Shown here: positions 57,001 to 60,000 of the stretch, piece after piece | Position numbering within the stretch: position 1 is the stretch's first letter | How the letters are laid out: every line of letters starts with the position of its first letter | From: a virus | Taxonomy: Duplodnaviria; Heunggongvirae; Uroviricota; Caudoviricetes | Direction: 5' to 3' (one strand) | DNA: 64,000 nt | IMG/VR virus record: IMGVR_UViG_2718217859_000010 | Program-made: the position numbers

Positions 57001-60000
57001 CTGGGGTGATATCATCAGATTTATACAAACCAAGAATTTCTGCTGCTTCCTCATAGCCATGAGGTAAATCAGCAATCGTTCTTCGTATTGCTGCCACCAG
57101 CCATGCTGGTTGTTTATCAACTTTCCATTCAGGTTCTTTACCCACGGTTAATTCCTCATTTCTGTGGTGTTTTTATGCCGCAGCACTGTTAGTCTTTTGA
57201 TATAAATACACGTCAACTTTCAGTTTCCCGTTAGTAATTTTTTCTAACTGGTACGCTCGGCCTTCAGGAATAATCTCAGGCCACTCTGAAACAGACGGAT
57301 GCTTAATACCCAGGGCTTCGGCGGTTTTACAAACTCCGCCGAAATAATTAATCACGTCGGATTTCCGCATTTCTGTCTCCCGTTAAATTACGTCAAACAG
57401 CAATGTAGGATATCCAACATACAAATGTCAAGAATCCTACATGAGCATATGGTAGGATTGCCTACATGATGAACATGAGTGATCGTATTCGCCAAAGGCG
57501 AAAAGAACTGAACCTGACACAACAAGCACTGGCTGATTTGACTGGTGTGAACCGTGTCACGGTTACTGGATGGGAAAAGGACGACTACCAACCAAATGGA
57601 GCCAACCTTCAAGCCCTAGCCAACGCACTTAAATGCGATCCTCTGTGGCTTGTTAGCGGAAAAGGCTCGCCTGAACCAAAGATAAATCTAAAACCTGAAA
57701 TATTCGCAGTTAAAAAAGTCCCCCTCATCTCGTGGGTTCAGGCGGGTTCATGGACAATGACGGAGCCTGGTGTCAGGAAAGAAGATGCTGAAGAGTGGGT
57801 TTATACTACCGCCCTTGTATCAGAAATGGCATTTGCACTACGGGTCCGTGGTGATTCAATGACCAATCCCCTCGGCTCACCATCGATACCAGAAGGTTCT
57901 ATCGTTATCGTAGAGCCAGATATTATTGATACAGAGTGTATTAACGGAAAAATCGTTGTTGCCCATATCAATGGTGGGCAAGAAGCGACACTCAAAAAAT
58001 TTGTTGAGGACTGGCCGAACAGGTATCTCGTCCCACTAAATCCTAACTATAAAACTATTGAATGCGGTGAGAACTGCAGAATAGTTGGTCTTGTCAAACA
58101 AGTAATAATGGATTTTTGACACATCTTCCTCACTATCGCAAAACCGGGGTATCCCCGGTTTTTTTATGAGCCTATCTTTTTATGTAGGATAACCAACATA
58201 AACTCTTGACACTCGCATGTTGGATATCCTACATTTGTTTTTAGAGTTGTGGTGAATGCGCAGGCTGATGCGCGAAAGACATTGCAGCTATTGCGGAAAA
58301 GAGCTGTTCGGCGGGGCAATTAAATGCCCGTGAGAGTCTGAAATAACCGCAAGCCGGAGATCAGCACCGGTCACCACAACAGCCACTGCTTTGGCGGTAC
58401 CAGTTTGTACACTTGCTTCCGGCTGGTACCGCTCTTTTTACAAAACAGAGAAGAGCATCACCGGACGACGGGCTCATAACCCAATCCATCCGGGCGGCTG
58501 CCACCGCAGGTGTTCTTCTCTGTTTTGTGGAGAAACCAACCGACCTTGCAGGGTCGATATGATGAGGAGCAGCAAAATGGCTAGCGAACGCAGTACTGAT
58601 GTGCAGGCATTTATCGGGGAGCTGGACGGCGGCGTATTTGAAACCAAAATCGGCGCAGTTCTCAGTGAAGTCGCTTCCGGTGTGATGAACACGAAAACCA
58701 AAGGGAAGGTCTCACTCAACCTGGAAATCGAACCATTTGATGAGAACCGTGTGAAAATCAAACACAAACTCTCATATGTTCGCCCGACTAACCGCGGGAA
58801 AATTTCCGAAGAAGACACCACCGAAACGCCGATGTATGTCAATCGCGGTGGTCGCCTGACTATTCTGCAGGAAGACCAGGGACAATTACTGACTCTTGCC
58901 GGTGAACCTGACGGAAAACTACGCGCAGCAGGTCATTAATATCGTTCTTAATTAACTGATTATTTATCTCATCACTGAATATCTTTATATAGTGAGGACT
59001 TATTATGTCTCAGAACTTAGACGCAACCGCAATTAATCAAATCCATGCCCTTATTTCTGCTCAGGGTGTTAATGAAATTATCAGTAAGATTGGTGCCGAT
59101 GCTGTGGCATTGCCTGAGAATTTCCGCATTCATGATCTGGAAAAATTTAATTTAAATCGTTTCCGTTTCCGTGGTGCGCTTTCCACTGCCAGCATCGATG
59201 ACTTTACCCGTTATTCTAAAGATCTTGCAGATGAAGGCACCCGCTGCTTTATCGATGCTGATAATATGCGTGCCGTCAGTGTGCTTAACCTGGGTACTAT
59301 TGATGAACCAGGTCACGCAGATAACACCGCCACTCTCAAACTGAAAAAGACAGCACCGTTCTCTGCTCTGTTGTCTGTTAATGGCGAGCGTAACTCCCAG
59401 AAATCACTGGCAGAATGGATTGAAGACTGGGCCGACTACCTTGTGGGCTTTGATACTAATGGTGACACCATTCAGGCAACAAAAGCGGCTGCGGCGGTCC
59501 GTAAAATCACGATTGAAGCGAACCAGACCGCTGATTTTGAAGATAATGACTTCAGCGGCAAACGCTCTCTGATGGAGTCTGTCGAAGCGAAAACCAAAGA
59601 CATTATGCCAGTGGCATTTGAATTTAAATGCGTTCCGTTTGAAGGCCTGAAAGAACGTCCGTTTAAATTACGCCTCAGCATTATCACTGGCGATCGTCCT
59701 GTACTGGTTCTGCGCATTATTCAGCTGGAAGCGGTGCAGGAAGAAATGGCTAACGAATTTCGTGATCTGCTTGTTGAGAAATTCAAAGACAGCAAAGTAG
59801 AAACCTTCATTGGTACTTTCAGCGCCTGATTTCATTACTGCAAATGCCCCTGCGGGGGCATTTATGGAAACATAATCGACTCAATAATCGCCGGATGGTG
59901 AGGGCTTCCTTTTACCAGAATTCAGCGTGGTGCAGCACATATAACGTGGAGAACAATATGCCATTTATTAAAACTTTTTCTGGGAAGCATTTTTATTATG

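Follow-up and report, generated by a model that had tools for sequence, protein, structure and literature searches.

How the early-left operon of a lambdoid prophage is expressed when an intrinsic terminator lies between its promoter and its first gene is the question raised by the pL leader (58143-58577, + strand) in the Caudoviricetes record IMGVR_UViG_2718217859_000010, of which the whole 64,000-nucleotide (nt) stretch that was analyzed is referred to here as the window. An earlier note on this DNA had proposed that, as an N-like gene is missing, expression depends on an RNA-based antitermination or attenuation mechanism similar to that of HK022 put. The analysis described here leads to another reading, in which the leader is composed, as a mosaic, of three RNA modules, all of them conserved and non-coding, namely the body of the small RNA sRNA-17, a three-way junction carrying a copy of the anticodon arm of the initiator tRNA, and a loop-conserved hairpin ahead of the first gene, and is neither a gene nor a put-like antiterminator. 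Together with the mechanism proposed below, this reading is given about an even chance of being correct. What was retained of the earlier interpretation is that the leader does not code for protein, that transcription must pass a terminator and that an N gene is missing; the antitermination mechanism was abandoned.

The elements that raise the question could all be located. The 25-codon open reading frame (ORF) runs from the ATG at 58256 to the TGA at 58333 and encodes the peptide MRRLMRERHCSYCGKELFGGAIKCP, the terminator consists of a 10-bp G+C-rich stem followed by TCTTTTT, and the 15-bp inverted repeat has its arms at 58440-58454 and 58514-58528, one base away from the start first given for it. 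Also the supposed lack of an N-like gene was borne out: Pfam identified no N-like family in ten early proteins, and PHROGs identified no N-type family among the small leader ORFs, YfdP, YfdQ, the 101-aa ORF of the pL operon and the cII-like protein, all matches of the leader ORFs and early proteins to PHROGs being to families of unknown function. The leader is non-coding and highly structured, and folds far beyond shuffled sequences, with minimum free energy (MFE) z-scores of -7.3 for 58440-58528 (reached by 0 of 200 shuffles), -7.6 for 58385-58580 and -5.2 for the whole leader. Rfam 15 gave no credible match in 57000-59200 at E-values up to 10.

The leader terminator occupies 58394-58439 (+), with the stem formed by 58394-58403 and 58423-58432 and the U-tract UCUUUUU at 58433-58439. 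The stem is extended by G.U pairs, and the local hairpin has a folding energy of about -19 kcal/mol; because its loop measures 19 nt, it was missed by a simple terminator scanner. sRNA-17 is a 193-nt RNA that was mapped by 5'/3' rapid amplification of cDNA ends (RACE) in a mEp460-type prophage of E. coli K1 RS218, and its 3' end in RS218 falls in this U-tract (PMC7719688). Transcription from pL indeed has to pass the terminator. With the hairpin, the U-tract and a mapped 3' end, all features of an intrinsic terminator are present. A terminator, counted as a hairpin of -10 kcal/mol or lower that ends at most 3 nt from the T-run forming the foot of the junction, lies directly upstream of the junction in 93 of 99 distinct homologous contexts, and at least 10 unrelated stem sequences occur among these terminators, which demonstrates that the terminator is real and conserved. 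No further strong + strand terminator was found in the pL operon when 58570-62700 was scanned.

The first module could be assigned to sRNA-17 itself. The full-length primers, the RACE primers and the northern probe used for sRNA-17 (PMC7719688) correspond to 58246-58438 on the + strand, the probe being antisense to it, and the window is 99% identical to mEp460 over the sRNA-17 region. Based on the primers and probe, both ends and the size of 193 nt, 58246-58438 (+) is the sRNA-17 homologue, the pL-proximal terminated transcript. From the positions of primers and probe it follows that the 5' end of the RNA lies 3-4 nt past the predicted pL start and its 3' end in the terminator U-tract. The body of sRNA-17 (58246-58380, +) is a module of its own, closed in the MFE fold by a stem of GUUGUGGUGA (58246-58255) with UCACCACAAC (58371-58380), which shows one compensatory change from G-C to A-U in a copy on P1-type plasmids. 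The module boundaries in BLAST alignments were at 58243/58246 and 58381. This part, one third of the feature, is already published; the junction is not in Rfam, and no description of it was found, a full-text literature search for the core motif string yielding no paper.

The 25-codon Cys-rich ORF (58256-58333, +) lies inside sRNA-17 and was judged non-coding. A usable Shine-Dalgarno sequence is missing, and the start codon is located within the hairpin GCGCA-GGCUGA-UGCGC. Among three homologues of the sRNA-17 module (window, mEp460 and P1-type plasmid), two differences form the compensatory G-C to A-U pair, and the sole difference inside the ORF is non-synonymous. In our own reading, a second P1-type unit, in which the 5' hairpin is found with another compensatory change, shares only about the first five codons. 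The peptide matched no Pfam or PHROG family. The micro-ORF is probably not a gene.

Published expression data bear on the strength of the terminator. For yfdP, with which the pL operon begins, 0.49 reads were counted in the RS218 lysogen, in which sRNA-17 was visible on a northern blot (PMC7719688); this fits efficient termination. In the sRNA-17 deletion strain of the same study yfdP was up 95-fold, and the pKD3 chloramphenicol resistance (CmR) cassette was retained in this strain (methods and supplementary Table S2 of PMC7719688). As, in our reading of the primers, the homology arm of the deletion keeps the leader terminator as well, the 95-fold rise was dropped as proof of terminator strength. 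It is best explained by read-through from cat, and the up-regulation of yfdP and yfdR in the deletion strain is likely a polar effect in cis and not regulation in trans. The orientation of the pKD3 cassette in the deletion is presumably such that cat points towards yfdP, and read-through of this kind would hint at a leaky terminator.

The second module is a three-way junction (58435-58533, +), consisting of the helices P1 (58435-58459/58509-58533), P2 (58461-58493) and P3 (58494-58507). The perfect 15-bp repeat is the core of P1, which measures 25 bp and takes in the terminator U-tract. In an alignment of 43 distinct junction sequences (A1), for which P1 (20 bp), P2 and P3 were counted as structure, 93.8% of the cells pair, compared to 41-49% with a slid partner. 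On both sides 11 pairs were changed, and 69 double-change cells were present compared to 24 ± 3.5 after shuffling (0 of 500 shuffles), which establishes the structure of the junction. The conservation of the hairpins among homologous phages, which the earlier note had put forward as a check, was thus found, with compensatory changes. Since G.U pairs are frequent, the junction RNA is assigned to the + strand. A covariance model based on A1 scored the window element with 119 bits. Apart from the reverse strand of the element itself, this is the only copy that the model identified in the 64-kb window, and the pR operon contains none. P1 and P3 drift, P3 varying from a 4-bp hairpin to an insert of 40-50 nt, and an internal mismatch in P1 recurs, columns 17 and 111 being unpaired in 23 of the 43 sequences. 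With 25 bp in the window and 20 bp conserved, P1 has a length of about two helical turns, as an RNase III substrate does. The block most widely shared in BLAST alignments, 58392-58600, comprises the terminator, the junction and the start of yfdP. Judged on its pattern of paired changes, the junction is rated as a well-supported structured RNA, and it would be a new variant among tRNA-like RNAs.

The most conserved part of the junction is P2, with the nearly invariant consensus CCGGR-YG-AC-GGG-CUCAUAA-CCC-AAUC-C-AYCCGG. It includes the near-invariant core GAC-GGG-CUCAUAA-CCC-AAUC-C (58467-58487, +) with a stem-loop at 58470-58482. Within it, 58469-58482 (CGGGCUCAUAACCC, 14 nt) match the anticodon stem-loop of tRNA-fMet from E. 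coli at every position; the reference stretch was verified in 5425 of 5426 complete genomes, in about four copies each, annotated as tRNA-Met. The common loop variants CUCAUAA, CUCAUUA, GUCAUAU and UUCAUAU all keep U33, CAU and A37. The 7-nt loop, U33 and a purine at 37 are found in all common variants, and CCA together with a 6-7-bp stem in one class of sister copies only (class B, see below) and not in the window. ARAGORN in standard, pseudogene and D-armless mitochondrial modes reported nothing at the window element or at the class B copies, and the Rfam tRNA model RF00005 matched only neighboring true tRNAs and not the element.

The P2 hairpin was also compared across taxa. In 32 distinct hairpins aligned in a fixed register, six rows of which (Acidobacteriaceae, a gammaproteobacterial metagenome-assembled genome (MAG), two Saccharibacteria, a deltaproteobacterial MAG and L318) were chosen partly for their pairing flanks, 91% of the cells were paired compared to 27-52% when slid. 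Shuffled alignments had 12 double-change cells and 15 extra pair types, whereas the real one had 41 and 25 (0 of 500 shuffles in each case). A GTDB scan identified 6 of 6 flank pairs in 5 of about 44 non-enterobacterial windows, against about 0.1 expected by our own estimate; two of these five are coincidences in coding sequence. Matches in Flavobacteriia (L283, L293) lie inside coding sequence and were rejected as chance. Look-alike core hairpins are present in Saccharibacteria, Acidobacteria and other MAGs, and the phage copies are those of temperate Enterobacterales phages. In three Saccharibacteria MAGs (L252 ~410-560, L280 ~1780-1930 and L305 ~7460-7610) a locus of about 150 nt contains the hairpin AC-GGG-NUCAUAN-CCC-AAUC and has a strong terminator at its end, compensatory changes between the MAGs and no Rfam match; it may be an independent small RNA with the same motif. 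In IMG/VR, four contigs (L160, L175, L184, L164) have a GAC-GGG-N7-CCC-AAUCCA hairpin, flanked by covarying sequence, in a 5'-UTR some 150 nt into the contig, and by eye their ORFs contain a motif like that of RNA-dependent RNA polymerases (..DLTAATDRIP..), which suggests RNA viruses; because matches of this type occur near the number expected by chance, no relationship is claimed.

Several other explanations for the core were discarded. Pairing of the loop with UUAUGAGCC (58165-58173, 9 nt complementary) was considered a coincidence because it occurs only in phages sharing this immunity region, and pairing with the start region of the first gene was rejected by inspection since AUG alone is shared. 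A hammerhead ribozyme was excluded, as the CUGAUGA in class B is part of a stem and does not recur as a conserved sequence in class A, and Rfam gave no match. A likeness to the 5' region of tmRNA (GACGGG...CCCAAGG) is superficial, and a tmRNA search with ARAGORN was negative. The M3 RNA of phi80, a substrate of RNase P, is annotated as an oop homologue near cII and hence unrelated. Other 'anticodons' in the same scaffold gave matches at chance level in an IMG/VR scan, besides single-base variants of true members.

Sister copies were sought by scans with exact patterns, and the core was identified at 120 loci in IMG/VR. Of 5426 complete E. coli genomes, 2967 contain the leader at least in part, and the terminator-junction block lies between cI and yfdP in SfV, SfII, SfIV, mEp460, cdtI, many Stx2 phages, ST64B, phiNP and LLS. 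Rfam returned nothing over the element in ST64B, GZ7, PA-1 and LLS, nor in the non-enterobacterial loci. Strong members occur only in Enterobacterales prophages, with Escherichia, Leclercia, Kosakonia, Enterobacter, Citrobacter, Phytobacter, Buttiauxella, Erwinia, Mixta, Trabulsiella and Pseudescherichia as hosts. Class A copies, to which that of the window belongs, lie in pL leaders. They are followed by GGAGAAA(C), a KGCA-type hairpin with covarying stems and a ribosome-binding site, and the next gene is yfdP or, in other phages, rdgC-like or yfdR-like. Class C copies lie in leaders of late genes after a tR'-like terminator in phages of Pantoea and others (L008, L064), and late-leader copies are located ahead of lysis genes in Yersinia, Raoultella and Edwardsiella prophages. 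Class B copies, in Klebsiella and Raoultella phages, directly follow tRNA-Asn and tRNA-Arg downstream of Q and have a 6-7-bp stem, GGCCUG/CAGGCC, followed by ACCA or GCCA. As a side observation, the upstream part of the ST64B pL leader (L005 2298-2416) is formed by a sub-threshold STnc100-like domain (E = 2e-4), and by eye this also applies to SfV-type pL leaders; the same terminator and junction come behind it.

A stretch of some 900 nt behind trnA and trnT, which bears the annotation plp or hypothetical, is an array of hairpin-closed modules in phage P1 and in P1-type plasmids (L235 2419-3345 in plasmid pAVS0973-B; OP279344.1 65552-66453 in phage P1). Two closing stems alternate in the array, and among its modules are a 98% copy of the body of sRNA-17 and two weaker copies of the junction with the loops GUCAUAU and UUCAUAU; one of its units encloses the T-arm-like GGGTTCGAATCCC.

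The third module is a KGCA-type hairpin, cgacc-U-UGCA-G-ggtcg (58541-58556, +), 7 nt upstream of the Shine-Dalgarno sequence of yfdP. Of 97 homologous leaders, 86 have a hairpin with a KGCA-type loop (U-KGCA-G) on stems of unrelated sequence, compared to 8 of 111 control segments. In some phages (L011, L022, L093) the KGCA hairpin recurs ahead of later genes.

The mechanism favored before, RNA-based processive antitermination, would have the leader RNA bind RNA polymerase as HK022 put does, or recruit Nus factors. It accounts for an N-like gene not being found and for the terminator within the leader, and the fusion of the junction to a regulated terminator in pL and late leaders alike suggests a link to terminator passage. 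In our own reading, the 3' strand of P1 is also boxA-like (UGCUCUUU) in some homologues. However, this strand is tied up in a helix of 20-25 bp, and in the window the boxA-like sequence is not conserved. The junction is transcribed only past the terminator, no other strong terminator follows later in the operon, and an element downstream of the only convincing terminator cannot act on that terminator. Put and nut sites come in pL/pR pairs, but the window contains a single junction and its pR operon none. The pL-putL sequence of HK022, compared by eye, does not resemble the leader in sequence or architecture, and a put-like RNA was therefore rejected. Moreover, the same core is present in tRNA arrays with CCA ends and in late-gene leaders, which points to a tRNA-like RNA rather than a modifier of RNA polymerase. 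The antitermination mechanism of the earlier note, whether put-like or otherwise RNA-based, is thus considered very unlikely. The sequence CGCUCUU at 58430-58436, which we take to match lambda boxA, is the 3' arm of the terminator and is not conserved in homologues. The pL operon of these N-less lambdoid phages is located behind a terminator without a visible antitermination device.

Instead, it is proposed that pL first gives rise to an RNA of about 193 nt (58246-58438) ending at the intrinsic terminator. The terminator would stop most transcripts, the short RNA being a by-product or a regulator, and yfdPQR...xis-int would consequently be quiet in the lysogen. As termination would be incomplete, some polymerases may escape passively, with no active antitermination. 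Their read-through transcripts would carry the junction, of which the 20-25-bp foot swallows the terminator U-tract and the invariant arm presents the copy of the initiator anticodon stem-loop on a helix of about the length of the anticodon/D limb of a tRNA. Because sister copies keep the core with tRNA-type ends (a 6-7-bp stem with RCCA, within tRNA arrays), the core may be excised as a small stable RNA mimicking a tRNA. The long foot in this leader would be cut by RNase III and the copies in tRNA arrays by tRNA-processing enzymes, and the RNase III cut would also set the 5' end of the yfdP mRNA. The third module is the loop-conserved hairpin just upstream of the Shine-Dalgarno sequence of yfdP.

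A further step, proposed from sequence comparison and tentative, is that the invariant arm is a functional mimic of the initiator anticodon arm that is released and acts in trans on the machinery reading this arm; at present this is regarded as doubtful. VapC of Shigella and Salmonella cuts the anticodon loop of tRNA-fMet, and a decoy for VapC-type toxins cleaving tRNA-fMet or for defense nucleases is one possibility for such a role. Others are a ligand of the 30S P site, of IF3 or of methionyl-tRNA synthetase (MetRS), and RNase P is also a candidate reader. Some observations weigh against the mechanism and the mimicry. The mechanism leaves the tight fusion of terminator and junction unaccounted for. 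ARAGORN and the Rfam tRNA model reject even the class B copies, and rare prophage copies have CCU, UAU or AAU in place of CAU, so that mimicry of the anticodon is not absolute.

The same conservation could have other causes. The junction might be purely a processing or stability element in cis, in which the RNase III helix and the KGCA hairpin tune expression of the first pL gene without any role in trans. Such an element would explain the 20-25-bp helix with its recurrent internal mismatch, the constant distance of 40-100 nt to the ribosome-binding site of the first gene downstream and the conserved hairpin just ahead of the Shine-Dalgarno sequence. RNase III, however, needs no invariant 21-nt core, and it is the core that is most conserved, whereas P1 and P3 drift. 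In addition, the copies in class B and in phage P1 do not precede a gene start, and in the others the downstream gene varies (yfdP, rdgC-like or yfdR-like), so that this explanation is rated as rather improbable. Selfish or decaying tRNA-derived repeats, remnants or mobile units shuffled by recombination without a role for the phage, would fit the modular BLAST boundaries, the unit arrays of phage P1 beside tRNA genes including that with T-arm-like GGGTTCGAATCCC, the fragments scattered over many phages and the rare copies with a mutated CAU. Against such repeats, hardly any change is seen in the core across phages ranging from Escherichia to Pantoea and Yersinia, and the stems change by compensation, including G.U pairs, a pattern that marks a folded RNA under selection; the copies also keep a fixed position with respect to terminators. 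Repeats of this kind are an unlikely explanation.

Finally, the leader might encode small proteins, either the 25-codon ORF, a 49-codon ORF at 58413-58562 or the minus-strand ORFs of mEp460 and cdtI. A frame through P2 (..SPxDGLITQS..) is indeed open in all homologues, there are PHROG families for both strands, and annotators called the minus-strand ORFs in mEp460 and cdtI. The frame is open, however, only because P2 is invariant; its starts and ends are inconsistent or absent, and it shifts after P3 insertions. Substitutions keep base pairs and not codons, and the micro-ORF, without a Shine-Dalgarno sequence, is not conserved as a protein. Both PHROG families, phrog_33599 (+ ORF 58413-58562) and phrog_3651 (- ORF 58361-58504), lie over the same DNA encoding structured RNA; their presence on both strands and the class B copies in tRNA arrays argue for mis-called ORFs, and the two families were probably built from spurious ORFs. 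With inconsistent frames and no conserved peptide, coding across the junction or in the micro-ORF was rejected, and protein products are considered extremely unlikely.

The leader is part of a lambdoid Stx-converting prophage at thrW that makes up the last ~45 kb of the window. Its int lies at 61379-62542 and tRNA-Thr at 62557-62632, with proA beyond them, and it contains Q (50219-50668) and a gene with a StxA-type RIP domain (48766-49722). The immunity region comprises a P22-Cro-like gene (57173-57370, -) and a cI-type repressor gene (57466-58119, +), the transcript of which ends at an intrinsic terminator, AAAACCGGGGTATCCCCGGTTTTTTT (58143-58167, +), the equivalent site being annotated as a terminator in SfV. 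Palindromic operators of 19 bp are located at 57403, 58182-58200 and 58217-58235, the latter two forming OL. The pL promoter (+) has its -35 element TTGACA at 58206-58211 and its -10 element TACATT at 58230-58235, with a promoter scan score of 10/12. pR (57395-57433) and pL (58204-58242) are inverted copies of 39 nt with 85% identity, each with TTGACA-18-TACATT and, overlapping it, a palindromic operator of 19 bp. The first gene of the pL operon, identified from its ORF and translation and annotated as yfdP in RefSeq (58577-58939, +; phrog_204, unknown function), has its Shine-Dalgarno sequence GAGGAG at 58564-58569 (+). It is followed by yfdQ/DUF2303, an HD-domain yfdR-like gene, a DUF551 gene, the 101-aa ORF, an HTH_17 gene that is taken to be xis, and int.

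Other RNA elements were observed elsewhere in the window. A C4 antisense RNA (84 bits) beside isrK (67 bits) at 56016-56204 (-) lies directly upstream of the pR-operon gene with Ash/Rha domains (55413-56564), and this pair looks like an antirepressor control module of the P1 immI or Gifsy-1 IsrK type in a lambdoid Stx phage. Rfam STnc100 (164 bits) matched 48191-48408 (-), just downstream of the stxB-like ORF, and an Esr41-like weak match was present at 48035-48125 (+). Far upstream of the early region, Rfam IS009 matched 19250-19447 (-) with 121 bits, just over its gathering score.

The leader is widespread, also in Stx-converting phages, and is presently annotated as nothing or as spurious ORFs on either strand. 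With sRNA-17 being the head of a terminated pL transcript, its published phenotypes are to be reread, as the regulation of yfdP and yfdR looks like an effect in cis. The junction is an RNA absent from Rfam, and what it copies is the stretch most diagnostic of an initiator tRNA. Should it prove to be a tRNA mimic, it would represent an unrecognized class of phage-encoded tRNA-mimic RNAs and add a player at the RNA level to the conflict between phage and host over tRNAs.

Compared with known systems, the leader shares with HK022 a lambdoid phage without a working N and a structured RNA encoded in the pL leader. HK022 put is a ~70-nt V of two stems with a triplex, located just after the promoter and upstream of the terminators it suppresses; it is present in both early operons and binds the zinc-binding domain of beta'. 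The element in the window is in contrast a three-way junction closed by a 25-bp helix, located 3' of the terminator, present in a single copy and, compared by eye, of unrelated sequence. The hairpins cleaved by RNase III in the lambda N leader and at the T7 R sites resemble the junction in having a helix of at least 20 bp in an early-operon leader just upstream of the first gene; they have no conserved apical tRNA-like domain, and cleavage of the junction is only predicted.

By length, ends, strand and prophage type, the first module and sRNA-17 are the same RNA, which was described as a free-standing small RNA under control of ArcA (PMC7719688) and is here the promoter-proximal, terminated part of the pL transcript. 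StxS is a short RNA resulting from termination just downstream of the late promoter of Stx phages (PMC7547250). In both cases a terminator directly follows the promoter of a phage operon, a short RNA accumulates and the operon is off in the lysogen. StxS is transcribed from pR' and its terminator tR' is overcome by Q, whereas the leader described here is transcribed from pL and shows neither an evident antiterminator nor an evident qut, nut or put site.

The closest relation of the core is to tRNA-fMet, with which it shares the 14 nt CGGGCUCAUAACCC including the three G-C pairs that mark initiator tRNAs. In contrast to a tRNA, the junction of the window has no D arm or canonical T loop, its anticodon stem of 3 bp continues through a 1x2 internal loop into a long helix, and the acceptor-like stem is replaced by the 25-bp helix without CCA. 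The identity elements of MetRS are G1-C72, G2-C71, C3-G70, A73 and the CAU anticodon. Class B copies, located inside tRNA arrays, resemble a tRNA further in having an acceptor-like stem with G1-C72, G2-C71 and C3-G70, followed by A/G73 and CCA.

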